DNA of 64,000 nucleotides from Escherichia coli (GTDB lineage: Bacteria; Pseudomonadota; Gammaproteobacteria; Enterobacterales; Enterobacteriaceae), in the NCBI RefSeq assembly GCF_024700885.2, contig NZ_CP117016.1. The stretch is one strand, 5' to 3'. The translations under genes and the position numbers were made by a program. Below, one piece after another: positions 21,830-40,787 of this stretch (position 1 is its first letter; every line of letters starts with the position of its first letter). The notes beneath the pieces are model-generated. The model saw only the letters and a program-made list of their open reading frames with translations, was not told the origin of the DNA and made no database searches.

Positions 21830-21873
21830 CAGATGTGGTTATACTCGATCAACATTCAATGAAAGGAGGCAGT

Positions 21874-22302
21874 ATGGCAGTTTCAGCAAGAAATCAATTA
21901 ACCGGAACAGTTAGCGCAGTAGCAATGGGCGCTGTGAATGATGAAGTAGAACTGACGCTGGCAGGTGGTGCAAAACTGGTGGCAATTGTGACTCACAGCA
22001 GCCAGCAGGCTCTTGGTCTGGCAAAAGGGAAAGAAGCGATTGCCCTGATTAAAGCCCCGTGGGTCACGCTGGCAACGGAAGACTGTGGACTGAAATTCTC
22101 TGCTCGCAACCAGTTTGCTGGCAGCGTGTCGACAATCACCGAAGGCGCAGTGAACGCCACTGTCCATATCATAACGGATGCGGGTTTTGAAATTGTGGCA
22201 GTGGTAACAAATGAAAGTCAGGATGAAATGAAACTCACCACTGGCTCGCGCGTTATTGCATTGATCAAAGCATCAGCCATCCTGATTGCCACCAAAGCGT
22301 AA
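21874..22302 (+). CDS. Molbindin-like protein with two tandem TOBE (Mop) domains
   Basis: 142-aa ORF preceded by AGGAGG; two repeats of SARNQ(L/F)xGxV...ALIKA, the molybdate-binding Mop fold. Confidence 0.7.
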   Translation: MAVSARNQLTGTVSAVAMGAVNDEVELTLAGGAKLVAIVTHSSQQALGLAKGKEAIALIKAPWVTLATEDCGLKFSARNQFAGSVSTITEGAVNATVHIITDAGFEIVAVVTNESQDEMKLTTGSRVIALIKASAILIATKA

Positions 22303-22340: not shown

Positions 22341-22685
22341 TTATTTCTTTGGACGATATTTTTCTGGCAACTCCGGCACCGGACGCTTGTCATCGATGAG
22401 ATGACGCACGGTTAAGATCGGATGACGCCACAGCATTCTCGGCCCGGCCCAACGCATAATCTGTTTCATCTCTTCACGCTTTGCAGGCTGGTAACAGTGC
22501 ACCGGACACTGCTTACAGGCTGGTTTCTCTTCGCCGAACACACATTTATCCAGCCGCTTTTGCGCGTAGGCAAACAGCGCGTCGTAATGCTCCGGCTCCG
22601 CTGACGCCTGCGGGCATTTCGCTTGATAAAGATCGATCATTTTTTTAATCGTCAGTTTTTCACGAGAGATACGCTTGCCGGACAT
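22341..22685 (-). CDS. ygbA: Cysteine-rich small protein YgbA
   Basis: 114-aa ORF with several Cys pairs, in the conserved position between fhlA and mutS. Confidence 0.85.
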   Translation of the reverse strand: MSGKRISREKLTIKKMIDLYQAKCPQASAEPEHYDALFAYAQKRLDKCVFGEEKPACKQCPVHCYQPAKREEMKQIMRWAGPRMLWRHPILTVRHLIDDKRPVPELPEKYRPKK

Positions 22686-22971
22686 GCTGCCTCCACCTCA
22701 TTAAGATGCATTTATATTACAACTTAATCTTAAAGGGCACTATGACTCTAAAGAAGAAGGGTTCGCCAACTGATACAATTTTGCGTACTTGCTTCATAAG
22801 CATCACGCAAAAGCTGCAAAACAGCATCTTTCCCGGAATCACCATCAAGAACTCGCCGTTCGCTTCTTCCCCTGAAATGATTAACTCCGGTATCATGTGC
22901 GCCTTATGTGATTACAACGAAAATAAAAACCATCACACCTCATTTAATATCAGGGAACCGGACATAACCCC

Positions 22972-23021
22972 ATGAGTGCAATAGAAAATTTCGATGCCCA
23001 TACGCCCATGATGCAGCAGTA
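22972..23021 (+). pseudogene. mutS: Orphaned original 5' end of mutS (first 17 codons, [17 protein letters not shown]) displaced by the island
   Basis: Sequence encodes the native MutS N-terminus as I recall it and then diverges abruptly into AT-rich island DNA; the frame ends after 17 further island codons. Confidence 0.8.
22999..23021. repeat. Left copy of the imperfect direct repeat flanking the island (attL candidate)
   Basis: CATACGCCCATGATGCAGCAGTA; 19 of 23 positions match the right copy at 40836-40858, with an identical ATGATGCAGCA core. Confidence 0.65.
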
Positions 23022-23079
23022 CCATTTTTCTATGGTTAACCTGTTGAAATTTAGCAATAAAGTGTTTGGTAAGTAGACT

Positions 23080-23100
23080 CTGGTTTACTGATGGTATACA
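23080..23100. repeat. Tandem CTGGTTTAC / TGGTATACA motifs at the island left end (candidate integrase arm-type sites)
   Basis: The same TGGTATAC/TATACCAG motif recurs three times next to the integrase gene at the right end. Confidence 0.4.
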
Positions 23101-23365
23101 TAACATATAGTTATGTTAGCCAAGAACTCGAACTTAATGTGCCTAACTACAGAATGAAAAGTAACGTTGCGATACCGAAAAAATTTGGTGGCGTAAGGAA
23201 GGAATTGAAGTTCATTCATCTCCGTGAATATCTAAATCAATTTAATAACCAATTAAATAATTAGCTGGCTACAAATAACATTGATCTAATTCAATAATTT
23301 AGGATTATGTATTGGAGCTATTGAAAAAGTTGTGTTATAAAGGAAAAAAATCAAGGGAGATTAAA

Positions 23366-23635
23366 ATGTCTATCGATATCAATAAGTTAAAATCAAAATT
23401 AATTGAAGATTATAAATTCGCTGACGAGATTAGCGATGATGAAATCAATATAGTTTTAAGTGAAATACACAAAAAGGGTGCCTCAACACCAAAAGAAGTA
23501 GACGAAATTGTCTATACGGTATTAGAGGGTAAAAGGCATTATGCTTTCGAAAGTCTGGATACATCCAATACTACATCCCTTGCATTACAGTTAATTCAGG
23601 CGGCAAAGGTATATGCTCAAACACAAGGAAGATGA
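23366..23635 (+). CDS. Hypothetical small acidic protein
   Basis: 89-aa ORF from an ATG preceded by GGGAG; AT-rich island DNA; no recognisable motif. Confidence 0.45.
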   Translation: MSIDINKLKSKLIEDYKFADEISDDEINIVLSEIHKKGASTPKEVDEIVYTVLEGKRHYAFESLDTSNTTSLALQLIQAAKVYAQTQGR

Positions 23636-24401
23636 AAGCATTCACATAGAGAGTAAAAAAAAACTTGATATGGAATTGCAGTTTTTAATAGATGAGATGC
23701 AAGCTGGGAAGGATAAAAACACTATTCTTCCACTGTTGAATAAACTGCAATTACAGTTTTCGATCTATGTTACTGATTTTGAAAATTTCATCGTTCGAGT
23801 TTCAGAAAATGGGTATTATCGTTCAAAAGGTGAAATAAAAGATGTTTTAATTAGCGTAGAAAATTTTTTAAATTCAAATGCAGTTGTTGCAGAAGCAATA
23901 AATACAGTTTCAAGCATATTCAATTTACCCCAATGTTATCAAGAAGGAAATTTCATAACAACTGCTCAAATAATATTAAGAACACATCAGAAAGAAAAAG
24001 CCGAGGAATTATCTCAAATTTATAAGGATAAAGGATTATCAACAAATGGCTTTGATAGTAAAGAAAAAATTTATTTGAACAGACACGGGTTTGATATGAC
24101 CAGATTTATTTCGTTTATATTAGGATTAATTTGTATACTTTATTTTTTATATGAATACAATATAGGCAATATAAACAATGGTATAAGTTGGTTTAATTAT
24201 AGATTGTTTGTTCCAACTGGATTAGGAGCAATAATATTTTCACTATTTCCGACAACCATGCAATTAAAATTTAGAGCAGGAGTGACAGCCACTGGAATTG
24301 TCGCATTTATTATATTTTTTTATACTGTCAATCCAGCAAAAGTTCCTGATTTTCAACTTCATAATATTGATAGCAATCAATCATCAGAAAAAAACAACTG
24401 A
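23613..24401 (+). CDS. Hypothetical protein, soluble N-terminal domain with C-terminal transmembrane helices
   Basis: 262-aa ORF overlapping the upstream ORF by 23 nt; three hydrophobic helices in the last 90 residues. Confidence 0.5.
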   Translation: MLKHKEDESIHIESKKKLDMELQFLIDEMQAGKDKNTILPLLNKLQLQFSIYVTDFENFIVRVSENGYYRSKGEIKDVLISVENFLNSNAVVAEAINTVSSIFNLPQCYQEGNFITTAQIILRTHQKEKAEELSQIYKDKGLSTNGFDSKEKIYLNRHGFDMTRFISFILGLICILYFLYEYNIGNINNGISWFNYRLFVPTGLGAIIFSLFPTTMQLKFRAGVTATGIVAFIIFFYTVNPAKVPDFQLHNIDSNQSSEKNN

Positions 24402-24448
24402 TATCCAAGCGGATATCAGTTTAGATCTTAAAAGGAAAAAAATCCAAA

Positions 24449-24943
24449 GTGAAATTTATAGCATATGCGTTCTTGTCATTTACTATCGCACCAATAATTG
24501 GCATAATTATTGGAATTCCATTTGATAAATACTTACTCAAAAACTATCCAGTAGTTCTTTTCACAGTAATAATTATTTTCTCGTCCTTAGGAATCTACTC
24601 TCTTTACTTGTATAAAAAATCATACAAATATGTTAATGATGCTGTTTTAGCTATCTTTACTGGTTGGGTTGCATTGACATACTTACTCACGGGAGAAAAA
24701 ACAAGTGAGATAATCCCCTCGGAGAAACTAATTGAAACACACCCATTAATGTATTATCTAATAATATTAAAATTAACTATTGTTGCAAATGGGCTTTTGG
24801 CTAAGATATTTATTACATTAAACGAATTATATCATGCTCGTAAAGCTGAAAACAAAAGTGGGAAATATACTGATGTTTTAAAAATGACTATTTCCAGCAT
24901 TAAATCTTTTTTTAATTCTCAGAAGGACGGAGTCAAAAAGTAG
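24449..24943 (+). CDS. Hypothetical polytopic membrane protein
   Basis: 164-aa ORF with GTG start and about four hydrophobic helices. Confidence 0.45.
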   Translation: MKFIAYAFLSFTIAPIIGIIIGIPFDKYLLKNYPVVLFTVIIIFSSLGIYSLYLYKKSYKYVNDAVLAIFTGWVALTYLLTGEKTSEIIPSEKLIETHPLMYYLIILKLTIVANGLLAKIFITLNELYHARKAENKSGKYTDVLKMTISSIKSFFNSQKDGVKK

Positions 24944-25153
24944 AACAACCCCCATAGGAATTATTAATGCATTCATTGAAATAATAGCAGCAAAAACCAC
25001 TGCTAAATAATCATTCTTTGTGTCATAAAACAAAAACACAACAATATTTAAAAATAACACAAAGAGATAAAAAAGCATATCTTTAATATTCATAACAGCC
25101 TCCTTTTTTCTAATTTGATAATTTACAAATATCTTAATATAACGAAAAGTCAA
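24878..25153 (-). CDS. Hypothetical small membrane protein (uncertain)
   Basis: 91-aa hydrophobic ORF; its 3' end overlaps the preceding plus-strand ORF convergently, so one of the two may be spurious. Confidence 0.3.
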   Translation of the reverse strand: MTFRYIKIFVNYQIRKKEAVMNIKDMLFYLFVLFLNIVVFLFYDTKNDYLAVVFAAIISMNALIIPMGVVLLFDSVLLRIKKRFNAGNSHF

Positions 25154-25244
25154 CTTACCCGATAAAAAATAGTTATTAGAACACCTTAAACTGATAATTA
25201 CATTAATAAATGCGAGTGATGAAATTTTTGAGTGAGATCATAAA

Positions 25245-25568
25245 TTGTTGAGGCGTAAAGTTGTTGATATACCTGCTGTTCTGGTAAGTACTGCCATAAT
25301 AAAGGGCTGGTCTCCATCTGGTTTACTGCTTATATTTGTAGCTATGCTACTTAAGTGCTCTGTCGTTATATTGGGTATACATAATGCCCAAAAATCATTA
25401 TCGGATATTATTGAATCATCTAATAAGACGATGATTTTATTCACGAAAGATAATGCCAATGATGATGACGAAGCATTAACCAACCGTATTAATCAGATCA
25501 CAACCGAAGCTTTAACCAAACTCAGTAATAAAAAAGTTGATGCTGAAAAAACCTTGAATAAGCTCTAA
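25245..25568 (+). CDS. Hypothetical membrane-anchored protein (uncertain start, TTG)
   Basis: 107-aa ORF with one hydrophobic segment; an alternative 81-aa ORF exists on the opposite strand. Confidence 0.3.
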   Translation: MLRRKVVDIPAVLVSTAIIKGWSPSGLLLIFVAMLLKCSVVILGIHNAQKSLSDIIESSNKTMILFTKDNANDDDEALTNRINQITTEALTKLSNKKVDAEKTLNKL

Positions 25569-25876
25569 TGGTTGATTTTCATTGGTGTATCAGTCTGGTC
25601 TATGTTTGTTTTATATCAATTCAAAGATAACATAATCCCAGTTATTGAATTCGCCTATGAGCATATAAAGAGTTTCGTTACTTATTTATTAAGCAAGGGC
25701 TAACTCATCGAAGCTCCGCTTCTTTGAGTTCCCTTGTTTTTCGCCCTTCGGTTGAAAAAGAAAGTCAAAGTCTAACCTAACTCATTGACATGAATTGCAT
25801 TTCCACTATAAATATATAATGTGTTGCAAAGGAATTGCTTACTTTAAAGCGAATAAAAATATAAAAAGGAGTTTAT

Positions 25877-26260
25877 ATGGGTAAAATAATAACATTGTCG
25901 TATACAAATAATTTTAAGCCTATTAGCGATAATAAATCTCAATCATTGCGAATACACTGTGTAAGTGTACGATTAAATAAAGAAGAGTTAGAGCTTCTCA
26001 ATGCAAGCCGTGGTGATAAACGCAAAGGTGAATGGCTTCGCATGGCATCACTTCAAAAGCTTCCTCCGACCATTCCTACAATCAATTTAGAAGTTTGGCA
26101 ATCATTGTCTGATATATCTCAAAAGCTAAACCGTCTAATAATCCACCTTGATACTAAAAGCAGTAATAGTGAACTGACGAAAACAGAGATCTTCGCTGTT
26201 AAAAAGCAGATTAAAGAGCTTCGCTCATGTCTTACAGGTTCTGATCCGTCCGTAAGGTAG
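25877..26260 (+). CDS. MobC-like mobilisation (relaxosome accessory) protein
   Basis: 127-aa ORF with the MobC-type core HCVSVRLNKEELELLNA...GEWLRM, immediately upstream of a relaxase gene. Confidence 0.65.
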   Translation: MGKIITLSYTNNFKPISDNKSQSLRIHCVSVRLNKEELELLNASRGDKRKGEWLRMASLQKLPPTIPTINLEVWQSLSDISQKLNRLIIHLDTKSSNSELTKTEIFAVKKQIKELRSCLTGSDPSVR

Positions 26261-26268
26261 TTATTCGC

Positions 26269-27450
26269 ATGAAAGGAATGCAGAAGATCAAAAGGGGTAA
26301 GAGCTTCTCAGGTGTGGTTCTCTATGTGTTAAAGCCAGGCTCACACCATAGAACCGTTCCAGAAGTAATTGGTGGCAACATGACAGGTGATTGCTCACAA
26401 GAGTTAATCGACGAATTTAACCTTACGAAAGAGCTTCGCTCAGATGTGGCAAAACCTGTTTGGCACAATTCACTTCGATTACCCCAGGGAGAATCTCTTA
26501 CCAACGAACAATGGAAACGAATTGCTGACGATTACATGAAGCGAATGGGGTTCGGTGATACACACCTCCGTTGCTATGTTCTTCATGATGATCAGGCTGG
26601 TCAGCACATACACATTATTGCAAGTCGCATAGATCTCAATGGCGGGAAGCTCTACTTGGGTAGGAACGAAAACCTCATCAGCACCCGCATAATCAGTGAA
26701 CTCGAATTCGCTCATGGTCTGACAGTGACCAAGACAGCCTCTTCAATTGCACCAAAGCAACCGAAGCGGAAGAGAATCTCTCGCAACGAACAGATGCTAT
26801 CAGAACGAACTGGTGTTCCCTGCCCCAAGAAGTCCCTTCAACAGATCATAGATAAAAGTTTGGCAGATACACCTGACCTTTTAACTTTTATCAAGAGGCT
26901 GGAAGAAGCAGAAGTAGGCTGGACGGCGAATGTCGCAAGCACAGGTAAAATGAACGGGTTCTCTTTCGAATACACAGGAATAGCTTTCAAAGCTTCCCAG
27001 TTAGCCAAGAGCTATTCATGGGCAAATCTTCAAAAGCAGCTTAACTACAACCCGGATCACTTAGAAGCTCTGCGAAAGGATATACAGACCAAGGAAGTTC
27101 CTGCTCCTGTTCCTGTTCCTGTTCCTGTTCCTGTTCCTGTTCCTGTTCCTGTTCCTGCAGAACCGATAGCAAGAACGGCCGCCCAGATCGAAAGCATAAG
27201 TGAAAAAATTGCCGAACTGGAACTACGACTCAAAGAAGACAGAAGAAACGAAATCGTAGAAAAGATTCTTCAAAAGAATGCAGCCAAACAGCAAAAGCAT
27301 CTCAGGCTCACCGGCTGGATTCCCTTTTTACAACGGCTCATAGAGCTTCTCAGAAAATATGGAAGGAGCATCCTCCACAAGGTTCCTACAAACTTCTTAG
27401 AAGTCTATTCAACCCATCATCTGAAACCTACAAGAAAAATTCGTTTATAG
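26269..27450 (+). CDS. Mobilisation relaxase (MobA/VirD2-like nuclease domain) with internal (PV)n linker
   Basis: 393-aa ORF with N-terminal Tyr region (GVVLYVLKPG) and HDDQAGQHIHII three-histidine motif typical of relaxases. Confidence 0.75.
   Translation: MKGMQKIKRGKSFSGVVLYVLKPGSHHRTVPEVIGGNMTGDCSQELIDEFNLTKELRSDVAKPVWHNSLRLPQGESLTNEQWKRIADDYMKRMGFGDTHLRCYVLHDDQAGQHIHIIASRIDLNGGKLYLGRNENLISTRIISELEFAHGLTVTKTASSIAPKQPKRKRISRNEQMLSERTGVPCPKKSLQQIIDKSLADTPDLLTFIKRLEEAEVGWTANVASTGKMNGFSFEYTGIAFKASQLAKSYSWANLQKQLNYNPDHLEALRKDIQTKEVPAPVPVPVPVPVPVPVPVPAEPIARTAAQIESISEKIAELELRLKEDRRNEIVEKILQKNAAKQQKHLRLTGWIPFLQRLIELLRKYGRSILHKVPTNFLEVYSTHHLKPTRKIRL
27100..27153 (+). repeat. In-frame hexanucleotide tandem repeat (CCTGTT)n, nine units with seven perfect, encoding a Pro-Val/Pro-Ala linker
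   Basis: CCTGCT-(CCTGTT)x7-CCTGCA read directly inside the relaxase ORF. Confidence 0.9.
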
Positions 27451-27702
27451 ACAGCTAGTTATAAACACCTTTCGTAACATAACTTAATTACCTAGTGATA
27501 AATTTGTGTTTAGTCAAGAAAATATTGATCGTTATTACAGATCGATATCAATATTATGATAGCCTAAACCTATCGTAACTTAGACATCGATCGGTACAAG
27601 TGATTTTACTAAAGATAATTATTCATCGAGAATCCCTGAAAAGAGCCTGATGATTTTTAAGCAATAGCAGTATCAGGAACCGATTGTAAAAATGGAGTTA
27701 AT

Positions 27703-27981
27703 ATGAATAACGAAACCATTAAGTGTCCGTTCTGCTTCAAAGAGAGCCAGTTTGGTGTCCGTGTTTGTACCGGCTGTCATTCAACCATCAAATATGGCGA
27801 AGTTTCACCTTGGTTATCTTTACTAATAGGATTTATTTTATTAGCCATTGCTTACATCATACTTTATATAAGTCAAAGTTTTTTAGTAGCTCTCGTTATT
27901 CTTTTAACATTAATGATTTCTACAAGATTGTATATTCGTAAAAAATTTGCACACAGAGCAGTTTTCACTCACCAACATTAA
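27703..27981 (+). CDS. Hypothetical zinc-ribbon membrane protein
   Basis: 92-aa ORF with CPFC...CTGC at the N-terminus followed by two hydrophobic helices. Confidence 0.45.
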   Translation: MNNETIKCPFCFKESQFGVRVCTGCHSTIKYGEVSPWLSLLIGFILLAIAYIILYISQSFLVALVILLTLMISTRLYIRKKFAHRAVFTHQH

Positions 27982-27999
27982 GAACAAAAGGGATTTAAC

Positions 28000-28314
28000 A
28001 TGAAAGCATATGCTATGCTAACAATCATTCTTTCTACTTTTCTATTAACTGCATGTAATAGTGAACCAAGTCAAGATGATATCTACAATGCATTCAAAAG
28101 TGTTGTAGATAAAACCAATGCCAGCATGAAAGCTTTTGATTCAAGAGTGTCAGAAAAAGACCTTTTAAAAATCGATTATGTAAAAAAAGTAAGCTGTTCG
28201 GAAGAAGCAAACAATGTTTACAACTGCATTGTCGATGCTTCTATTAGCAACAATAAACAGACGAAACCAATTAAATTAGTTAAAGCTGATGGTGTCTGGA
28301 AAGAAGTTCAGTAG
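28000..28314 (+). CDS. Hypothetical lipoprotein
   Basis: 104-aa ORF with signal peptide and lipobox (LLTAC) at the N-terminus. Confidence 0.5.
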   Translation: MKAYAMLTIILSTFLLTACNSEPSQDDIYNAFKSVVDKTNASMKAFDSRVSEKDLLKIDYVKKVSCSEEANNVYNCIVDASISNNKQTKPIKLVKADGVWKEVQ

Positions 28315-28366
28315 TAGCCTATATCAAGAAGTCTCTTTTAGCCCCTGCACAGGGGCTTTTTATTGC

Positions 28367-28801
28367 CTATAACCTGACGGCTCTTACGCGAACTTCATGG
28401 GTTAACTCTTTCTCGATTACTTTCATTTCATATTGTGCTCTGACAGTAGCATAGATTTCTTCTGCCATTTCTTGATTGCTATCGATATAGTTAACGAGAG
28501 AGTTTAGCTCCCTGATAACAGCTTCCTTATTGTTTAATCGTTGTAGTAGATTGCTTGTTAGGCTTTTGTATACAGAGCTAAACATTGCCATGACATTGTC
28601 TATGTTACGATTTGATTTGGAATAAATTTTTTTAGGATAGAAATATTTTAAATGGTATCCCACAAAAATTAAGTAAAGCTGATATGAAAAACTTTTATCA
28701 TGTGGCTGATATCGTTTTGATATGTATTTATCTACAATGATAACAAGCTGTTCTTCCAGTGTCATCACTGAATTATAATTGGTTTTGTTCATAAGTTGCA
28801 T
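28367..28801 (-). CDS. Hypothetical protein
   Basis: 144-aa ORF in AT-rich island DNA; no recognisable motif. Confidence 0.4.
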   Translation of the reverse strand: MQLMNKTNYNSVMTLEEQLVIIVDKYISKRYQPHDKSFSYQLYLIFVGYHLKYFYPKKIYSKSNRNIDNVMAMFSSVYKSLTSNLLQRLNNKEAVIRELNSLVNYIDSNQEMAEEIYATVRAQYEMKVIEKELTHEVRVRAVRL

Positions 28802-28894
28802 CCTTGCAAAATTTGATTTTGTCTTCCTGACAATACATATATAATTACCACATATTTAAAAAACATCAATAGACAAAACCTATTGATGTCAAAA

Positions 28895-29308
28895 TTATTT
28901 TTTGTTTTTGGGAAAAATTTGATCTTCTCTAATACATTTACCATATGCAACCATTTGAAGATCTCTAACCATAAGTAGAAGCCTGTTATTTTCACTAACT
29001 AACCTCGAATTTTCTGTTTCTAATTTACTGATTTTATTCGAAGCATAGGCAAGACTTTGAGGACTTTTAATATGCTTAACAGTTTCACCTTTAGTTCTCT
29101 TTTTCTGCTGATATGCATAAGCTATTACTGTATGTCTTGAAAGAGCCTGTCTCGTTGGTTTTTTACCGAAATGATCCTCTACGGAATCACAAAGACTGAC
29201 CCAAGTTAAATCGCCTTCCCAGCCATTTATTTTATCGAGAACGAATTCAATATCTTCCTTGTTAAACTTTTTACTCATTATGTTCTCCTCTAAGATAATA
29301 ACTAACAA
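28895..29308 (-). CDS. Small coiled-coil protein co-operonic with the recombinase trio (real start possibly MSKKFNKED at 29278)
   Basis: 137-aa ORF overlapping the stop of the upstream recombinase; C-terminal heptad-like KISKLETENSRLVSENNRLLLMVRDLQ. Confidence 0.5.
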   Translation of the reverse strand: MLVIILEENIMSKKFNKEDIEFVLDKINGWEGDLTWVSLCDSVEDHFGKKPTRQALSRHTVIAYAYQQKKRTKGETVKHIKSPQSLAYASNKISKLETENSRLVSENNRLLLMVRDLQMVAYGKCIREDQIFPKNKK

Positions 29309-30917
29309 TATGATTTATAATTTTACTAACTTCTTGGATTTCCTTTTCAACATAATTCGCTTTCTGTGAATTATATTGGCTTCTGTATAAATTATTCTTT
29401 TCTTCAAGCGTTTGTAAATGGTCTTTAATTTTGCAAATAATATCATCCTTACTCCCTCCACCTAAATCAGAAATCATTTCATCAGCAAATAATACTCTTC
29501 GTTCGTTTTGTCGCAACTCCTCCCAAGTTCGGTTATCATACACATTATTTTGTTCAACATTTTTCCTCCCTGACCAAAAAGCTATTTCTATATCAGAGAG
29601 CATAGCTCTTTGAGCAAGAGTGTTTAAAAGATGTCTTGGCTGATGACTACTAAAAATCTCTTTCATACCATTGGGTTGTAATGTTTTATGTCGTTGAAAA
29701 AAATTTAAGGTAGTTTCTTTTTCTGACCTTTTTTTAAAATCAGCAATAAACATCTTTTTATTTGCGGGTAAGACACAGAATAAATCAATTCCTTTCTTTA
29801 AATGTAATTGATCTTTATTTAGGATTAACAATCTATTACTAAGGTTTATAGATTTTGAAAATTCATCCCAAGATTTTGTTTTATCGCTATAATTAAAAAC
29901 TTCATTCCAAAATTCTTTTGCACTAAGAATCCCACTCTCTACCCTCATTAATATATTTTTAGTTTTAACATTGAAGCAGTCCATACAGTTTAGATTTAAA
30001 AGCTTATACAACTTTGTATGAAAATATCGTCCATTCTCATCAGTCTCTAAACTCTTATAAAACTCCAATTCTCCTTTTTCTCGTAGGGTAGCTATGCACC
30101 TTGCCGTTTGTGATAATACCCTTAATCTTTTAATGGCTAATTTTGCTATTGAATGCATATTCCTTGGAATCCACTTTATACTTTCACCATAGCCTTTTGC
30201 ACTATGATAACGAATGCCATAGGAGCCTTTCCCCTCTATGTCGTTCCCTTCAACTTCACAATCCACCTCAAGACTCAGGACTTCTGATATTCGTGTTGGA
30301 GCACAAAGAAGCAGTGCGATGATAGATGTTGTAAATATATCTCTTTGGCTTTTATCATTAGAACTAAAAACCCTACCAACAAGATCTATGACTTCCTCTT
30401 CTGGTAACTTATTTTTAATTTCTTTTTGCCCTATAAGATCTCTTACAGCTTTATTTCTAATTATTCTAAGCCTGGAGTTAAACTTACTTAATTTTGGATT
30501 TATTATGTTATTTATAGCTAACACTTCTAAAATATTCTTTAATGCCTTTTCAATAGCCCCCGCACGACTATTAGAATATTTCTTTTCTACTTGGAATAAA
30601 ATGTTGTTGATAACCTCAGAATTAATATTAACAATATGTGGTTCTACATTCAAAGTGAAGAATGAACTTTCCATAATTTTTATGACCGCCAAATAAAGTA
30701 ATGATTTACTGAGATTAGGGAAACACTCTCTATATATAATAACCTTTGATAATTGTTGAAAATGCGCTCCCATGTCTTTATCTTTTTTTATATGATTGTT
30801 ATTTTTAAATGAAACCCCTCTACCCCATGACAAATCATCCCAATTTATAATATTTTCTTTTTTTGCCTGTATCCTTACTTCATTAGCTAAAACATCATAA
30901 TTATTATAATGACTCAT
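29271..30917 (-). CDS. Tyrosine recombinase family protein (third of three tandem paralogues)
   Basis: 548-aa ORF; candidate catalytic residues in order: R in CAPTRISEVLSL, HQPRHLL (HxxR), W in FWSGRK, Y in NNVYDNR. Confidence 0.6.
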   Translation of the reverse strand: MSHYNNYDVLANEVRIQAKKENIINWDDLSWGRGVSFKNNNHIKKDKDMGAHFQQLSKVIIYRECFPNLSKSLLYLAVIKIMESSFFTLNVEPHIVNINSEVINNILFQVEKKYSNSRAGAIEKALKNILEVLAINNIINPKLSKFNSRLRIIRNKAVRDLIGQKEIKNKLPEEEVIDLVGRVFSSNDKSQRDIFTTSIIALLLCAPTRISEVLSLEVDCEVEGNDIEGKGSYGIRYHSAKGYGESIKWIPRNMHSIAKLAIKRLRVLSQTARCIATLREKGELEFYKSLETDENGRYFHTKLYKLLNLNCMDCFNVKTKNILMRVESGILSAKEFWNEVFNYSDKTKSWDEFSKSINLSNRLLILNKDQLHLKKGIDLFCVLPANKKMFIADFKKRSEKETTLNFFQRHKTLQPNGMKEIFSSHQPRHLLNTLAQRAMLSDIEIAFWSGRKNVEQNNVYDNRTWEELRQNERRVLFADEMISDLGGGSKDDIICKIKDHLQTLEEKNNLYRSQYNSQKANYVEKEIQEVSKIINHIVSYYLRGEHNE

Positions 30918-32274
30918 TATTCATGCCCTCCTTGTTGAGCAATTCGATTATTTTATTTATTTTACATTCTAACATTGTGAATAAGTCCGTTAGGATTTCA
31001 AAGTCTGCTTGCTTCGTATAATCTGCTATTAATACTCCAGTAAGCTTTTTTATGATTATCAAATCGTCAACCAATCTAAGGGTAATGTCGTCACTGTTTT
31101 TTAAAAATGAGGAAATATAAGGGCTTACTAACTCATTTATTGCCTGATCTATTCTGAATGAAAACTCTTCATTGTTTTTTGCATACGACAATACTGATTT
31201 CAAATTGCTATGATCTAAAGCTTTTGCTATCGTACCTAATCCATAACCTTTAAGTGCAAGCCTTGTGGCTAATGTAACCCTAAGTTGCCGAGAGTTAATC
31301 TTTTTATTTTTATCTTTACTTACCCTTTGGCAAATGGCCTGAACCCTACCGGTTATCCTCTTAGAACTCATATGCAAATTGAAGAAGTTATTTTCATATA
31401 ATTTATCAAGTTTGTAAGTCGAGTTAAAAAAACAAGGATCAATAAAGAGGGGTAAATTGTTTAATTCATCTTCACTTAATATATCGCCTACCTCACCCTG
31501 CACAAAAACCTTAACTACTGATTTAAGCTCTGATAGTGAATTGAACAAATTATCCCCTATACGCAATTCGGAAAAATCAGTTCTGAAACTATCTCCTTGT
31601 TTTAATCTGGGTATGTTTAAAAAATTACCATTTTCTTTGATATAAAGATCCTTCCTTTTTAATTGAGCGATCTGCATTGGTCTTCGCCCCGAATATATCA
31701 TCAGCATGACTAAAAGGTAGTCATTCATAGTCATATTTCCATCATTGTATTCCTTTGTCATGCCCCCAATTAGGTTCTTCAGTTCGTATTCAGATAATGG
31801 TCTTAAAGACTCTTTTCGCTCAATATATGCAGTTGTCTTGTTGGGTTTAGTTACTTTCCATTTTAAAATCAAATCCAGCATTTCTTGATCTATGAATTCA
31901 TTATTTAACTCATAATGTTTTATTATAAAATACTTTAAACTTTCAACATGTGTATAGCTTATTTTATAATATGCATTGTAAAATCTATTTAGTAATCCAT
32001 AGTCAAATTTGTCCAACTTCCCTTGATTAAAAACAACGAGTTTTTTTATAGAAAAGAAAAACTTTCTCGCATAAGCTGAACTAAAATTCACAGCAGTATA
32101 GGCAAGGGTCTCTTTTATAGATGCTAATAAGATAGCATTAATGTTTCTTTCAAAATATGAGAAATTTAATTTAACATCTTTGCTGAGAAACCAAACACTA
32201 TCATGTAAACTAAAATTATTTCTGCTGTCTTTTGCCTTTAATACCAAGTAATTTTCTAACATTAATGCTTTCAT
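30904..32274 (-). CDS. Tyrosine recombinase-like protein with degenerate catalytic motifs (second of three)
   Basis: 456-aa ORF; SGRRPMQIAQL (box I Arg), SRQLRVTLATR, LDHSNLKSVLSYAKN; overlaps both neighbours. Confidence 0.5.
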   Translation of the reverse strand: MKALMLENYLVLKAKDSRNNFSLHDSVWFLSKDVKLNFSYFERNINAILLASIKETLAYTAVNFSSAYARKFFFSIKKLVVFNQGKLDKFDYGLLNRFYNAYYKISYTHVESLKYFIIKHYELNNEFIDQEMLDLILKWKVTKPNKTTAYIERKESLRPLSEYELKNLIGGMTKEYNDGNMTMNDYLLVMLMIYSGRRPMQIAQLKRKDLYIKENGNFLNIPRLKQGDSFRTDFSELRIGDNLFNSLSELKSVVKVFVQGEVGDILSEDELNNLPLFIDPCFFNSTYKLDKLYENNFFNLHMSSKRITGRVQAICQRVSKDKNKKINSRQLRVTLATRLALKGYGLGTIAKALDHSNLKSVLSYAKNNEEFSFRIDQAINELVSPYISSFLKNSDDITLRLVDDLIIIKKLTGVLIADYTKQADFEILTDLFTMLECKINKIIELLNKEGMNNESL

Positions 32275-33508
32275 CTATTTCTCCTTCAATTTTATTTATG
32301 ATTTCTTGATTCACTAAATCTGCCTCTTCAAAAGCTTTTAAAGTTTCTTCACTAATATAACGATTGTTATAAATCAAAGCCGTTTTGGAGTTCATTTTCC
32401 ACCCCATTCTTACGCATCTGATTCTATCTAATTGGGTCAATCTATATTGATCAGTGACTCCTATGTATTTTAAACTGTAAATATAGTTCCATGTGTGCCG
32501 TAGACAATGCCCTGTGAAATTTTGAAAAGATACTCCATTGAATTCAATTCTACTTATTTGCTTAATTACTTTATGATATGCACTTATTGACAGAGGAAAT
32601 CCTTCCGTAGGACCAGATTTTTGAGTAATAAATAAGTAATTATGATTTAAGCTTTTCGAATAGAAAGACCTATCATTGTCTATATATGAAGAGATTTGCA
32701 TAGACAATTTTTTGCTAATATTTAATTCTCGTTCAAATGTTTTAACAAGTGGTTGAAAAACTCTTGGGTCTGCTGGATCATTTATTCTTTTACAAACTTT
32801 CAGATATCTTTTTTCCTTGTTAAAATCAGTAATTTTCAAGTTCAATAGCTCACCCCCTCGCATTCCAGTTTCCTGAAGAATGAGGATTATGAGTTGATTT
32901 CTTTTACGGCAACTGATATCAACAAATGGATTGTATTGGCTTTCAGGTTCTATACATTGCAATAGAATGTCTAAGCTTTCTTTTTCTAATGATTTAAAAT
33001 CATTATTCAAATAGAATTGAGAGTTTAATTTTGGTTTATGTTTACGAAAAAGCAAACTAACACTTTTTGATATAATGTTTGTCTCATATATTGTAGTGCT
33101 AAAATATGATTCATAAATCCAAGAAATGTAGGAACTAATTACTGTCAATCTATAATGAAGATTTTCTTGATTGATCTTTTTATACTCTTTTATATCTATA
33201 ACTTTTTGTTTTTTATTTTTAACTCTAAGTTGTTCTGACAATGAATAGATTTCAGTAAAGCTAAGGAAGGTCTTAGATCTAATTCTTTCGATAAGATTTA
33301 TATTTGATTCTATTAGATAATTTTCAAAAGCAATCAAAGTGTAAGCATTTCTCAATACTGTATTAAATGACTTATTCTTTTGCTTATATAGCAAACTAAG
33401 ATATATATTTTGATAATACAATGGCAAACCGTTTTTTGAATCCAAAATCATACAAAATCTGCTTCCATCACTCGCCATTAACTTCTTTACTGAATATCTC
33501 CTATTCAT
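32216..33508 (-). CDS. Tyrosine recombinase family protein (first of three; start set at MNRRYSVKKL after a GGGGTGA RBS, ORF extends to 33547)
   Basis: GMRGGELLNL (box I Arg), HCLRHTW (HxxR), GWKMNS, ALIYNNRY (Tyr) in canonical order. Confidence 0.65.
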   Translation of the reverse strand: MNRRYSVKKLMASDGSRFCMILDSKNGLPLYYQNIYLSLLYKQKNKSFNTVLRNAYTLIAFENYLIESNINLIERIRSKTFLSFTEIYSLSEQLRVKNKKQKVIDIKEYKKINQENLHYRLTVISSYISWIYESYFSTTIYETNIISKSVSLLFRKHKPKLNSQFYLNNDFKSLEKESLDILLQCIEPESQYNPFVDISCRKRNQLIILILQETGMRGGELLNLKITDFNKEKRYLKVCKRINDPADPRVFQPLVKTFERELNISKKLSMQISSYIDNDRSFYSKSLNHNYLFITQKSGPTEGFPLSISAYHKVIKQISRIEFNGVSFQNFTGHCLRHTWNYIYSLKYIGVTDQYRLTQLDRIRCVRMGWKMNSKTALIYNNRYISEETLKAFEEADLVNQEIINKIEGEIDESINVRKLLGIKGKRQQK

Positions 33509-33626
33509 TATCACCCCATAATTTATTTTTTTATTTATAGGTAACATAATTTTTTAGCAAGTTACAAATTTATTTGCTATTATTTTCAATGACCTTATTA
33601 CTCGCGACTCTAATAAAGAATCGGCC

Positions 33627-33652
33627 ATATATTCACCTTAAGGTGAATATAT
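33627..33652. promoter_or_regulatory. Perfect palindrome ATATATTCACC-TTAA-GGTGAATATAT between the recombinase operon and the tRNA genes
   Basis: 11-bp arms with a 4-bp spacer read directly; function (operator or recombination site) not determined. Confidence 0.5.
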
Positions 33653-33680
33653 ATTCCCTCTTGACGCTCCAAAAAACAAT

Positions 33681-33757
33681 GCGGTAGTAGTTCAGTTGGT
33701 CAGAATATTCCCCTGTCACGGGAATGGTCGTGGGTTCGAGTCCCATCTATCGCGCCA
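33681..33757 (+). tRNA. tRNA-Asp (anticodon GUC), foreign island-borne copy
   Basis: Manual cloverleaf: acceptor GCGGTAG/CTATCGC, D stem GTTC/GAAT, anticodon stem TTCCC/GGGAA with loop CUGUCAC, T loop TTCGAGT, 3' GCCA; differs from my recollection of the host tRNA-Asp. Confidence 0.8.
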
Positions 33758-33761
33758 GAAA

Positions 33762-33836
33762 GGGCAATTAACTCATTGGTAGAGTGTATCTCTTACAAAG
33801 ATATGGCGGTTGGTTCGATTCCAACATTGCCCACCA
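33762..33836 (+). tRNA. tRNA-Val (anticodon UAC), foreign island-borne copy
   Basis: Manual cloverleaf: acceptor GGGCAAT/ATTGCCC, D stem ACTC/GAGT, anticodon stem TATCT/AGATA with loop CUUACAA, T stem GTTGG/CCAAC, 3' ACCA. Confidence 0.8.
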
Positions 33837-33847
33837 AAACATAAAAT

Positions 33848-33917
33848 GCGTCAGTATTTCAATGGTAGAATAAAACATTGCCAATGTTTAGGTGAGGGTT
33901 CGATCCCCCTATATTTA
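33848..33917 (+). pseudogene. Degenerate tRNA-like sequence with a Gly (GCC) anticodon arm
   Basis: Intact anticodon arm AAACA-TTGCCAA-TGTTT and a T-loop-like GGGTTCGATCCCC, but the acceptor strands GCGTCAG and ATATTTA cannot pair. Confidence 0.4.
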
Positions 33918-34104
33918 CTTTAGTTAGTAACTCATTGATATAAAATAAATAATAGAAAAGTGTAATTTGTTTTGTAAAGCACAAATAAGAAATTAGAAAA
34001 TATTTAAATGTACAGTGTACGAAAAATTAACCAACTATGTTAATGGCAACTATATGATGATAAAATTACTCATCTAACGATCTATATTATATGAGTAATG
34101 TTTC

Positions 34105-34680
34105 ATGGTACGAAAAATCTCTACATTTTTAAAGATAATAGGAGTTATAGGTTCTTTATGCGGGATTATTGCGACAGTATTCACAATCTATGCGTACTAC
34201 AACCCGACCTCCCCTTCTACTCAGAGATATGACAGTATTGTAGGAAGCTGGCTATCTGATTACTCTTACACCGTAAAAGGGAATACCGTTAGGGTTAATG
34301 GAAAAACGACCTTCTTCTCTAATGGAAAATACAACTTTCATGGCAGTATCTCTATTGACTCTAATGCTCCAGGTGACCATATATTAATAGATTATCTTTC
34401 TGATGGTGCTGGTGATTGGGAACTATATGATAATGAGTTAATTACATCATTAAATAGCCTAAAAACAAAACCTATGAAGCTGGCTTTAAATAACGAAGAT
34501 CTTGATCCACTGAAAATAGAGGTGATAAACAATAAAAAGTTACCAACTATTGAGGAGAATATGGCTGATGGGAAAAACCAATCCTATAAAATAATAAAAT
34601 CTTCAAAAAGCCAGTTAACATTGGAGGTTATTAACGAAATCGGAAGCAATTTCAACTTTACTATGCAAAAAACAAAATAG
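34105..34680 (+). CDS. Hypothetical membrane-anchored or secreted protein
   Basis: 191-aa ORF with an N-terminal hydrophobic segment followed by a Ser/Thr/Asn-rich domain. Confidence 0.45.
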   Translation: MVRKISTFLKIIGVIGSLCGIIATVFTIYAYYNPTSPSTQRYDSIVGSWLSDYSYTVKGNTVRVNGKTTFFSNGKYNFHGSISIDSNAPGDHILIDYLSDGAGDWELYDNELITSLNSLKTKPMKLALNNEDLDPLKIEVINNKKLPTIEENMADGKNQSYKIIKSSKSQLTLEVINEIGSNFNFTMQKTK

Positions 34681-34711
34681 AAATGATGGCGATCTGAAAT
34701 CGCCATCATTT
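34681..34711. terminator. Perfect 13-bp stem hairpin, bidirectional terminator between the convergent 191-aa ORF and the helicase gene
   Basis: AAATGATGGCGAT-CTGAA-ATCGCCATCATTT with A/T runs on both sides, filling the gap between two stop codons. Confidence 0.75.
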
Positions 34712-34712
34712 T

Positions 34713-36560
34713 TCAACCTTGATAATCTTCAGCCTCGATACCACAATAAGTTATCATGTTTGTTATTAACGGTATATCATTACAATTCTGCTTGAAAGAC
34801 CTGCCATAACTATTGTTTCTTATTTTACAACGAGTCATTAATACTTCTTCAATGGCTCTTGAAAATGCCACAAAGACTGTTTTTTGATTTTCTATTTGCT
34901 CTTCTTCTTTACCAAAATAGGCACCAGGTTCAAGCCCCACAACGATGACCTTCCTGAACTCTAACCCTTTACTTTTATGGATGGTCATAAGAGGTATTGT
35001 TTTATTGCCAAGTAATAAATCAATGGCTTCTGATGTGTTTTCTTTTACATCTAACTTATCGAGGTGGCGAGAAAGTAATTCTATGCTATATTCTAAAACA
35101 TTCCCACTCATATACTGCGGAAAGTAAGACTTTATTTTATCGACACCAAATATACTTAATAATGAATATAAATAATCGACAATTTCTCCTTTAATTACCC
35201 GATGAGATTTAATAAACTGGCTAAGTTCTTTTTCTAACCGTGTAACATCACCTCTTTTACTTACTCCTCTTATATTACATAGAAGCTCCATTGTAGTGGC
35301 CCAGCTTTCTATGGATTTTCTATTACAGACAAACATTAGCATTTGTAAAAGTAACTGTACTACAGCTTCATTTAAAAGATCCTGATACTCGTTCTCAAGG
35401 CGACATTGTATTTTCAAATATTGCAATGCTGAAATGATATCGTCTGTATATTGTTTAGCCGGGTTTCTTAGCAGTATACATATATCTCTTTCATTTACTC
35501 CTTCAGCAATCCATTGCTGGATACATAATGCTATATATGCCCCTTCAATACTACTTTCGTCAAATTGTAGTAACTTAGCTGAACCTTCATTTTCAATCAA
35601 CATCATATCAGGCTTTATATCAGCATGATTCATGAAAGCTTCCATCATGCGTTGATAATTTATGAGGTTTTTTAATGACCTTCTATTGCTAACTAATTCA
35701 TTAGATTGTTCGATTCCAAAATCTTTTTTAAACACATCAAAAGCATTGTGCATTGCACCTGCCCAACCCATTATTCTTTGTTTTGTATCACCGACTGCTG
35801 TTATTTTTATTTTTTTACCCAAGAAAATGCTCTTAAAAATCTCATATTGCCTATATGTTGTGTCCTGAAACTCATCGATAAAAGCATAGTCATATGTTGA
35901 ATTTATAGCATTAGATAAATATTGATTCCTACTAATAATATAATTAGCAAGAAAATTAATCATCTTGAATGAAATCCTTGATTTTGGTTTTAATAAGTGT
36001 AACCACACAAACCGTCTTATCCTGCCATCAACAGAATGTTCTAATGCTTTATTATAAGGAGTTACTATATAATTCTCTTCAAAATTATAAGGTTGTAATT
36101 TATTTAATTCTTCAGATGTTAAACCTTCAAAGCCTACGGCCTCTCTTTTAATTTCTTCAACTAAATCATTATTATTTGGAAAGATTATTTCATAGTCATT
36201 TGATGGACGATAAGATTCCGGAATAGTGCTTTTAAAGCGATCAACAATACTTTTACAGAATGCATCAAATGTTGTTGATTCAAATTTGTGTCTATATTTT
36301 GTATCAAGCCGTGAGTTTACTCTATCTTGAAGATTTTTGGCCGCATCTTTTTTAAAGGATAATGCAATTATTTTTTTATTGCTGCATTTTCCTGTCTCAA
36401 TCAAGAAACAAGCTTTCTGAGCCAATAATTCTGTTTTACCTGCACCGGGACCAGCAAGAACGAGATTATGCCCTGTACTATTTCGAATTACCCTCATAGC
36501 CTCGTCTTCTACTTCTTGGATATCCTTTAAAACCCAATCGGCATCTTTAATAGTCGGCAT
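34713..36560 (-). CDS. gajB: UvrD/PcrA-like superfamily 1 helicase, Gabija GajB-like
   Basis: 615-aa ORF with Walker A (LAGPGAGKTELL), DEFQDTT motif and C-terminal HKSKGLEF motif; start codon shares one nucleotide with the upstream ATPase stop. Confidence 0.65.
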   Translation of the reverse strand: MPTIKDADWVLKDIQEVEDEAMRVIRNSTGHNLVLAGPGAGKTELLAQKACFLIETGKCSNKKIIALSFKKDAAKNLQDRVNSRLDTKYRHKFESTTFDAFCKSIVDRFKSTIPESYRPSNDYEIIFPNNNDLVEEIKREAVGFEGLTSEELNKLQPYNFEENYIVTPYNKALEHSVDGRIRRFVWLHLLKPKSRISFKMINFLANYIISRNQYLSNAINSTYDYAFIDEFQDTTYRQYEIFKSIFLGKKIKITAVGDTKQRIMGWAGAMHNAFDVFKKDFGIEQSNELVSNRRSLKNLINYQRMMEAFMNHADIKPDMMLIENEGSAKLLQFDESSIEGAYIALCIQQWIAEGVNERDICILLRNPAKQYTDDIISALQYLKIQCRLENEYQDLLNEAVVQLLLQMLMFVCNRKSIESWATTMELLCNIRGVSKRGDVTRLEKELSQFIKSHRVIKGEIVDYLYSLLSIFGVDKIKSYFPQYMSGNVLEYSIELLSRHLDKLDVKENTSEAIDLLLGNKTIPLMTIHKSKGLEFRKVIVVGLEPGAYFGKEEEQIENQKTVFVAFSRAIEEVLMTRCKIRNNSYGRSFKQNCNDIPLITNMITYCGIEAEDYQG

Positions 36561-38548: not shown

Positions 38549-39195
38549 CTCAATTGCTGTTTTAAAAAATTATAATCACTAATTATTTCTGCGTTTGTAA
38601 TGATTTCTTGTGAGCACAGCTTAAAACATTCTAAAAATATATTTTTATTATCGTTATGTTCCCAATGTTTTTTCAAAGCTTCTTCAATTGAAATCCAAAT
38701 AACTTGAAAATCGTTATTAGATATTTGGCTTGTTAAAACTGTTTCTTCCACACAAAGTATATGCCCTAAGATGACATCATCGTATATGTCAGTATCTGAA
38801 TCTCTAACTCCTAACCTTTTTATTTTCCTTTTTTGGATGATTTTATTTTTAACAATAAAAGGATGTTCTTCTATAAAATCGGTCAATGATGTAAAAGCCA
38901 AGCCACGAACCTGAGCACCATGCATTGAACTATTTACTTTATGGATATCTCTCCAAACTCGCAGATCACCTAATACATAGAGAACCCGCTGATTTCTCGC
39001 TTTCGTATCTTCTGCTTGGTATTGGATATAAGGTGGCCCTCCCCCATTTTGTCTATATCGGGCAAGGGTTTTGATGCTTATGCCAAGAAAGACAGAAGCA
39101 AGCTCACTATTTACAGTGGCAGAATCAGGCATTTGACCAAATAGTTTCCATACCTCTGAATACTCCCGCAAAACTTCCACCACACTCATCTTCAC
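38545..39195 (-). CDS. Uncharacterised protein with an N-terminal HTH-like motif, translationally coupled between the integrase and the ATPase (possible true start at ATG 39189)
   Basis: 216-aa ORF; ELASVFLGISIKTLARYRQNGGGPP resembles excisionase/AlpA-type HTH; its start overlaps the integrase stop and its stop overlaps the ATPase start (ATGA). Confidence 0.5.
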   Translation of the reverse strand: MKMSVVEVLREYSEVWKLFGQMPDSATVNSELASVFLGISIKTLARYRQNGGGPPYIQYQAEDTKARNQRVLYVLGDLRVWRDIHKVNSSMHGAQVRGLAFTSLTDFIEEHPFIVKNKIIQKRKIKRLGVRDSDTDIYDDVILGHILCVEETVLTSQISNNDFQVIWISIEEALKKHWEHNDNKNIFLECFKLCSQEIITNAEIISDYNFLKQQLR

Positions 39196-40655: not shown

Positions 40656-40660
40656 CGATG

Positions 40661-40716
40661 TATACCAGTGGTTCAAGTGTGTATACCAGATAGTAGCTAG
40701 AATACTTCTGGTATAC
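40661..40716. promoter_or_regulatory. Three copies of TATACCAG, including a 10-bp inverted repeat GTATACCAGA...TCTGGTATAC, between the integrase start and mutS
   Basis: Read directly; candidate integrase operator or arm sites, overlapping a possible -10 (TAGAAT) for the rewired mutS. Confidence 0.5.
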
Positions 40717-40787
40717 AAATTTATGGGTTTATGTGAGTTTAAAGGGGTATCACTTGGGGCCACATAAGTACTCAGAAGACTTTAAAA

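Follow-up and report, generated by a model that had tools for sequence, protein, structure and literature searches.

Insertion of a putative mobilizable island within mutS of Escherichia coli MLI114, with the native promoter left facing the island cargo

The start codon of mutS in Escherichia coli MLI114 is followed within a few codons by island DNA, which raises the question of whether transcription from the displaced mutS promoter continues into the island and drives the genes that it meets there. The question was addressed in a window of 64,000 nt of the MLI114 chromosome (contig NZ_CP117016.1 of assembly GCF_024700885.2) to which all coordinates refer. A preliminary description of this DNA had claimed that the native promoter and ribosome-binding site (RBS) were intact, that the orphaned start codon continued in frame into the island, and that transcription probably entered the island and may drive the genes beginning at 23366. 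Comparative analysis identified region 22972-23366 as the left attachment site (attL) junction of a putative integrative and mobilizable island that extends from 23019 to ~40844 (~17.8 kb) and carries a single integrase, a module of three recombinases, a MOB relaxase, and a Gabija system. In the explanation preferred here, to which a probability of approximately 0.72 was assigned, this attL junction arose with a swap of the 5' ends, the short open reading frame (ORF) across it is a by-product, and read-through from the mutS promoter is at most a supplement to the expression of the first cargo operon.

The displaced native promoter and its 5' untranslated region of 74 nt were placed at 22860-22971 (plus strand) from identity to island-free genomes and from published landmarks. 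Positions 22859-23018 were base-for-base the same as the intact ygbA-mutS region of the island-free E. coli strain 1190, and many other intact genomes matched at 99.7-100% up to approximately 23018-23021 and diverged beyond (thousands at 99-100%), confirming that the native promoter and RBS are intact. The mutS leader is 74 nt long and regulated by Hfq/ArcZ (Chen & Gottesman, PMC5580658), which places the transcription start at ~22898, approximately 120 nt from the junction. The landmarks of this leader were identified at the expected places, including the (AAN)3 element ARN1 for Hfq (22922-22930), the ArcZ pairing site (22946-22957), and ARN3 (22980-22988), and the RBS and start codon of native mutS were retained upstream of the junction ORF. 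The ArcZ/SdsR pairing region and the Hfq (AAN)3 site of the native leader lower MutS in stationary phase (PMC5580658).

The crossover core was identified as the 11 bp sequence ATGATGCAGCA within codons 12-15 of mutS, with the attL copy at 23008-23018 and an exact repeat at 40845-40855 in the right attachment site (attR). The attachment site of strain 1190 (attB) carries this core and reads ...ATGATGCAGCAATATCTC..., attL consists of the native left flank, the core, and the island sequence GTACCATTTT..., and attR of the island sequence ...CACACTCCT, the core, and native ATATCTCAAG... from 40856. The three sites fit one reciprocal exchange inside the 11 bp core. The empty site is represented by the intact mutS of strain 1190 and was present in more than 5300 genomes; the left flank was found in 5418 genomes, two of them running on into this island. 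A third copy of ATGATGCAGCA was absent from the whole window, including the surroundings of the recombinase trio.

From the retained start codon the frame runs through the junction as a chimeric ORF of 34 codons (22972-23076, plus strand, by translation) with MutS residues 1-17, 17 codons from the island att arm, and a TAG stop, in agreement with the reading frame described earlier. The split into 17 and 17 residues also stood, but the DNA boundary does not lie after codon 17; the G at 23019 already belongs to the island because attB of strain 1190 reads ...ATGATGCAGCAATATCTC... at this point. Residues 16-17 of the stub nevertheless look native since the island attP itself encodes ...HTPMMQQY. 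At the junction the GC content fell from 48% to ~31% and stayed low to ~39000, and from composition the expected spacing of stop codons in DNA of 30% GC was estimated at ~11 codons. The length of the ORF alone is judged unremarkable, and its identity to the mutS 5' end is judged not to be due to chance. At sister junctions the tail of the stub ran for 6, 10, 17, or 23 codons to a stop and was frameshifted in iso538; no conservation of the peptide is seen in the tail, and the ORF is therefore very probably a by-product rather than a gene. A short ORF across the core appears to be a constant of this att site, as the tandem or attP-like junctions of L030, L043, L047, and 23AR0998 likewise read an island-type mutS' start into the next arm.

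The DNA beneath the stub tail belongs to the left arm of the island (P' arm of attP; 23019-23116), which was kept across islands with unrelated cargo, the first ~80-95 bp of the island being 70-85% conserved among them. An arm motif GGTAAGTAGACT was found at 23068-23079 with a second copy at 40561-40572, and the inverted repeat AGTAGAC-TCTG-GTTTACT (23072-23089) contains the TAG stop codon of the stub. A putative arm-type recombinase site TGGTATACA follows at 23092-23100, with three more copies lying between the starts of the integrase and the new mutS, namely TGTATACCAG at 40659 and 40680 and an inverted CTGGTATACA at 40708. The arm motif covaries at both ends of the island by lineage, with TGGTATACA in MLI114 and iso538 and TAGGCTACA at attL and attR of Yu5, as would be anticipated if these were arm-type sites bound by the recombinase of the island itself. 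These recombinase-site motifs, covarying with the other arm, would account for the conservation of the stub tail as DNA.

At the right end, the gene was restored as a mutS ORF at 40803-43370 (plus strand), annotated as intact mutS by the Prokaryotic Genome Annotation Pipeline (PGAP), with an ATG kept in the sister islands and an alternative start at 40788, giving a MutS of 855 or 860 aa, respectively. Its N-terminus comprises 19 island-encoded residues, two more than the native protein, and this island-type N-terminus was conserved in the sister islands. Among islands, the His-Thr-Pro codons vary at the third position, which points to coding constraint and to translation of the new N-terminus. 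Upstream lies a control region (40656-40802) shared by the divergent integrase and mutS genes that holds the three arm-motif copies and a block AAATTTATGGGTTTATGTGAGTTTAAAGGGG kept in sister islands. As the integrase gene is divergent, the mutS promoter should lie in this interval; no good sigma-70 match was found in 40656-40802 with a consensus or a position weight matrix (PWM). The new mutS leader is wholly island-derived, and neither an (ARN)3 Hfq motif nor a CAGGG-type ArcZ site was found in it. As judged from the sequence, mutS has lost its Hfq/ArcZ leader, and the regulation of MutS in carriers may differ from that in island-free strains.

The proposed explanation is that the island would have inserted by site-specific recombination within ATGATGCAGCA of mutS. 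Integration would swap the 5' ends, with the right end of the island giving mutS a new control region and the 19-residue N-terminus and the native promoter, 74-nt leader, RBS, and first ~16 codons being left stranded at the left end. The stranded start would read into the att arm and meet a TAG inside the putative recombinase-binding inverted repeat. When the island is circular or in tandem, its own mutS'-type start would read into the left arm, and after integration the host mutS promoter would take that place. The first cargo operon would be a self-contained unit, its conserved upstream region included, and, for this reason, read-through would be at most a supplement and not the main driver.

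Beyond the stub stop codon, an untranslated gap of 289 nt (23077-23365, plus strand; 30% GC, 12% C) precedes the first island gene and contains its RBS AAGGGAG at 23353-23359. A plus-strand intrinsic terminator, the feature that would have refuted the preliminary description, was found in 22898-23366 neither with strict criteria nor with a relaxed hairpin-plus-U scan, so that at the level of sequence the description was not refuted. The gap contains 36 C vs. 52 G (C/G 0.69), and C exceeded G in a sole window (23200-23300, ~16% C). Being C-poor, the gap would be a poor loading site for Rho. A search over 22600-41200 at permissive E-values identified only island tRNAs and no Rfam family in 22972-23366, and the predicted RNA fold of 23077-23380 (z = -1.47) did not indicate a structured leader. 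The first genes past the junction were on the plus strand in 11 of the 12 distinct cargo variants.

Nothing in the sequence would stop RNA polymerase, making the entry of mutS transcripts into the island likely. The mutS promoter is weak, and transcripts from it almost certainly cross the junction, while the odds are about even that a fraction of them reaches the first cargo operon 290 nt on. Both the continuity of this transcript and its size are what we infer from the DNA. The part of the preliminary description that had transcription entering the island is consequently likely, given the absence of a terminator and the co-directional genes, but the suggestion that it drives the genes from 23366 was unsupported, as the cassette is under selection where no mutS promoter exists.

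This cassette comprises genes coding for an 89-aa protein (23366-23635), a 262-aa protein (23613-24401) predicted as a helical bundle with C-terminal membrane helices, and a 164-aa membrane protein (24449-24943), all on the plus strand and annotated by PGAP. No Pfam, NCBIfam, or PADLOC family was assigned to the proteins of 23366-24943, and PHROGs gave nothing usable. The AlphaFold2 model of the 262-aa protein (predicted local distance difference test score of 82) has an N-terminal helical bundle and three C-terminal membrane helices, and a Foldseek comparison of this model with the PDB gave no match with E<0.3. The 89/262-aa pair together with ~290 bp of upstream region recurred in Pectobacterium aroidearum (locus L047), in a decayed island with an island-type mutS' start ahead of it, and beside a His-Xaa-Ser (hxs) radical-SAM cluster (L050/L051) where the neighboring hxsD is divergent and the flank is neither the mutS leader nor the island-type start. 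DNA identity of the L047 and L050/L051 copies to the window was 85-86% for the upstream region and 88-92% for the genes. The ratio of non-synonymous to synonymous substitution rates (dN/dS) of the pair was 0.17-0.35, indicating purifying selection. Purifying selection in the hxs context, which lacks the mutS leader, shows that the cassette genes are maintained without the mutS promoter.

The pair was also conserved elsewhere at 30-39% identity, including the smpB/tmRNA hotspot where the large protein (39% identical) and its small partner (37% identical) lie beside a reverse transcriptase/OLD-type cluster. The module is made up of a small soluble protein of 81-89 aa and a protein of ~250 aa (loci including L047, L050, L062, and L064), and it was found att-proximal in islands at both mutS and tmRNA. 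The pair appears to behave as a portable two-gene module of defense-island settings and is a candidate for an uncharacterized defense-island module. A candidate island promoter of the first operon, TTTACT-16-TATAGT (23084-23111, plus strand), was identified by consensus scan and PWM and overlaps the arm site; it was kept as TTTACT-16-TATATT in Pectobacterium L047 and in the hxs-context copies L050/L051, with promoter-like matches as a class not enriched over shuffled sequences. A second candidate just upstream of 23366, TTGGAG-18-TGtTATAAA (23312-23341), was rejected for its poor PWM score and the missing final T of the -10 element. Within the cassette, an 11-bp perfect hairpin (24396-24421) overlaps the stop codon of the 262-aa gene and has a U-run on the minus strand only, so that it looks like a guard against antisense transcription and not like a plus-strand operon end.

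Several points weigh against the preferred reading. The best -10-like hexamer, TATCAT (22891-22896), lies just 2 nt ahead of the start implied by a 74-nt leader and the exact mutS start is therefore uncertain by a few bases. The co-orientation of the first genes is no independent evidence of selection for use of the mutS promoter because the whole left half of the island up to the relaxase is on the plus strand. Most sister junctions were without a terminator, but hairpin-plus-U candidates before the first gene were present in Pantoea L014 and Yokenella L044. The user of the arm sites may be either the 487-aa integrase or the recombinase trio. Finally, long untranslated AT-rich DNA is of a type known to be silenced by H-NS and Rho, and the gap of 289 nt and 30% GC is such DNA. 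This last point carries the alternative that the displaced promoter is functionally orphaned, with ribosomes released at 23076 and transcripts stopped before 23366 by Rho over 289 untranslated nt and/or by H-NS, so that the cargo is expressed from island promoters only. The length and GC content of the gap, the conserved promoter-like element inside the island, and the purifying selection on the cassette where no mutS promoter exists agree with it. However, the gap is C-poor with G in excess and a lone C>G window (23200-23300, ~16% C), unlike typical rut sites, an intrinsic terminator was not found, and H-NS silencing is an assumption; complete orphaning is thus a serious but somewhat doubtful alternative.

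The opposite case, with the native mutS promoter as main driver of the cargo from 23366 and mutS-type growth-phase control imposed on it, could draw on the missing terminator, the co-orientation of 11 of the 12 cargo variants, and the lack of a strong sigma-70 consensus immediately upstream of 23366. Nevertheless, the same cassette with its upstream region intact is under purifying selection beside a divergent hxsD without the mutS leader, a homologous pair exists at the tmRNA hotspot, and the mutS promoter is generally known to be weak, leaving this case improbable. A role for the junction itself, either as a functional micropeptide encoded by the 34-codon ORF or as an Hfq/ArcZ decoy formed by the retained leader, was considered because a proven RBS and start codon remain with the ORF, as do the Hfq and ArcZ sites; for the same reasons the stub is probably translated and bound. 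Across sister islands its tail differs in length (6-23 codons) and sequence, with a frameshift in iso538, its conservation as DNA is explained by the recombinase-site motifs covarying with the other arm, and no sign of selection on the peptide was seen, making such a role very improbable. The preferred reading, in which a self-contained cassette receives at most a supplement from the stranded promoter, has a further-reaching extension that is speculative and rather unlikely: a reciprocal promoter swap with regulatory effects on both sides, i.e., altered and possibly island-state-dependent mismatch-repair levels and stress-induced mutagenesis in carriers, and a ready, low-level, growth-phase-regulated host promoter for new cargo in the first cargo slot, where sister islands hold genes of defense type.

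The remainder of the island is organized as a backbone with two cargo slots. A putative MobC-like gene, so named by position and without a family match, precedes the relaxase in a plus-strand unit at 25877-27450, with the relaxase itself at 26269-27450 (PF03432, E=5e-27); the origin of transfer of the island was not located. The recombinase module lies on the minus strand and comprises a small 137-aa gene (28895-29308) and three adjacent recombinase-like genes of 443, 456, and 548 aa (29271-33547), with PF00589 in two of the three and no match in the third. Between the recombinase trio and Gabija, tRNA-Asp (GTC), tRNA-Val (TAC), and a third partial tRNA-like match were identified at 33681-33910; the sister island of iso58 had no tRNAs annotated at the corresponding position. 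A complete Gabija system fills the second cargo slot, with GajB (615 aa, 34713-36560, minus strand; PADLOC E=1e-198) and GajA (662 aa, 36560-38548, minus strand; PADLOC E=1e-240), and DRT3 occupies the same slot in iso538. The tyrosine integrase of 487 aa (39192-40655, minus strand; PF00589 E=1e-11, a weak Arm-DNA-bind_3 match, and PGAP annotation) adjoins attR, its ORF lying 190 bp from the attR core, and a 216-aa protein is also encoded in the island.

One backbone with different cargo in the two slots was common to the four E. coli mutS islands of MLI114, iso58, iso538, and Yu5. Across 5426 complete E. coli genomes, an integrase-mutS junction of this type was found in 49 and the MLI114-type left end in two, and the same junction type was identified in Serratia, Yokenella, Citrobacter, Pantoea, Pectobacterium, and Enterobacter. 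The same backbone with varied cargo occurs at the same site across several genera, and tandem junctions resembling attP are also present, both being indirect evidence that the island may be mobile. At mutS, arrays that are tandem or decayed were observed in Citrobacter gillenii (L030), an Enterobacterales metagenome-assembled genome (L043), P. aroidearum (L047), and E. coli 23AR0998 (L055), where the left arm of one island directly follows the island-type mutS' start of another, in some cases together with IS1 or remnants of an integrase. These arrays indicate that integration may occur repeatedly at the regenerated att site. For the MLI114 island, an origin as a tandem of two elements was rejected on account of the missing third core copy and the single backbone shared by the four islands. 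Further cargo included a TIR-domain protein encoded ahead of the relaxase in iso58 and, on the attL side of Yu5 (L060, 622-4899), a ComEC/Rec2 family protein, a ThiF-family adenylyltransferase, a Mov34/MPN (JAB-type) protein, and small genes, a cluster that looks like a ubiquitin-like conjugation system.

The insertion strategy appears to match that of dusA-specific elements and of SXT at prfC. The dusA-specific integrative elements such as IMEVchUSA3 (PMC8409611) share with the mutS island a tyrosine recombinase, the status of an element mobilizable by others, and insertion into a housekeeping gene at its 5' end. As in the mutS island, an element-encoded N-terminus restores the frame, and the native promoter with the first codons is left at the opposite junction; the dusA elements also bring new expression signals (PMC8409611). 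The mutS island differs in its target, integrase family, and backbone, having a relaxase and the three-recombinase module. The new promoter was shown experimentally for the dusA elements (PMC8409611), whereas none was recognizable by consensus in the mutS island. The searched passages of that article say nothing of what becomes of the displaced promoter (PMC8409611). For SXT/R391, the target is the 5' end of prfC (Hochhut & Waldor, 1999, as cited in PMC8409611). SXT is a self-transmissible integrative and conjugative element (ICE) of ~100 kb, in contrast to the 17.8 kb mutS island with a relaxase only.

Hochhauser et al. (2023, PMC10121019, supplementary table) list the interval mutS-ygbA as E. 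coli defense-island hotspot #8 and give it as occupied in 27 of 1322 genomes. This is the same chromosomal site, and its defense cargo is represented here by Gabija in MLI114, DRT3 in iso538, and the TIR protein in iso58. The searched passages of PMC10121019, main text and supplement, give the hotspot by its flanking genes only and do not mention insertion inside mutS, att sites, a 5'-end swap, or a displaced promoter. Beyond the hotspot entry, a search of an incompletely covered literature found no paper on Enterobacterales islands inserted within the coding sequence of mutS, which is a weak negative.

The recombinase module resembles the ginABCD operon of GInt elements in having three large recombinase-like genes and a small gene (Bardaji et al., 2017, PMC5385486; also PMC10214605), with cargo after the small gene and a short, AT-rich far end (PMC5385486). 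For some GInts the insertion point is the 5' end of a gene, with flanking imperfect repeats of 10-17 nt (PMC5385486). The likeness is by gene order and sizes, and in the mutS island the trio is internal, ~7 kb from attR, with cargo and the separate 487-aa integrase in between. Filing the island as a GInt was rejected, as the gin-like operon is not terminal and no core-like repeat lies beside it.

Mobile islands at mismatch-repair genes are also represented by SpyCIM1 of Streptococcus pyogenes, which lies in the mutS-mutL operon, interrupts mutL expression, and excises in a growth-phase-dependent manner. The mutS island is similar in that it could alter the regulation of a repair gene, but, unlike with SpyCIM1, loss of repair is not expected because an intact mutS ORF is restored. 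In Tn916 and ICEclc, promoter placement that depends on the junction has been shown experimentally to couple expression to excision. The likeness is that recombination decides which promoter precedes which element genes; any coupling to excision in the mutS island would be conjectural.

A displaced promoter with its first codons pointing into the element would thus be a routine result of island insertion in the 5' end of a gene. For the E. coli mutS-ygbA hotspot, the results suggest insertion inside the mutS coding sequence by an Enterobacterales-wide island family that rebuilds the gene. The mismatch-repair sensor of approximately 1% of E. coli genomes would depend on island-supplied expression signals without the Hfq/ArcZ leader, and the Hfq/ArcZ control known for mutS would now be attached to a 34-codon stub. 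If this is true, mutation or recombination rates of carriers may change through the MutS regulatory swap. On the island side, a variable cargo slot lies directly downstream of a host promoter without a terminator, which could explain basal expression of newly captured genes.

The core and left arm (ATGATGCAGCAGTACC...GTTTACTGATGGGATACAT) were also observed away from mutS, directly beside the hxs radical-SAM cluster. Such core-plus-arm copies were found in more than 40 places in many E. coli genomes, with hxs-side loci including L005/L057 (TUM1887, 3.75 Mb), L006 (AR_0128), L028, L050/L051, and L056. The TUM1887 copy sits inside a thrW-linked island, and its flank matches neither an island-type mutS' start nor the leader of mutS. 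A short way upstream of the hotspot, a TOBE-domain gene between fhlA and ygbA (21835-22302 of the window) was present in MLI114, iso538, and Yu5 and absent from iso58, 19KM2415N, and NCTC8623, constituting a small presence/absence polymorphism.

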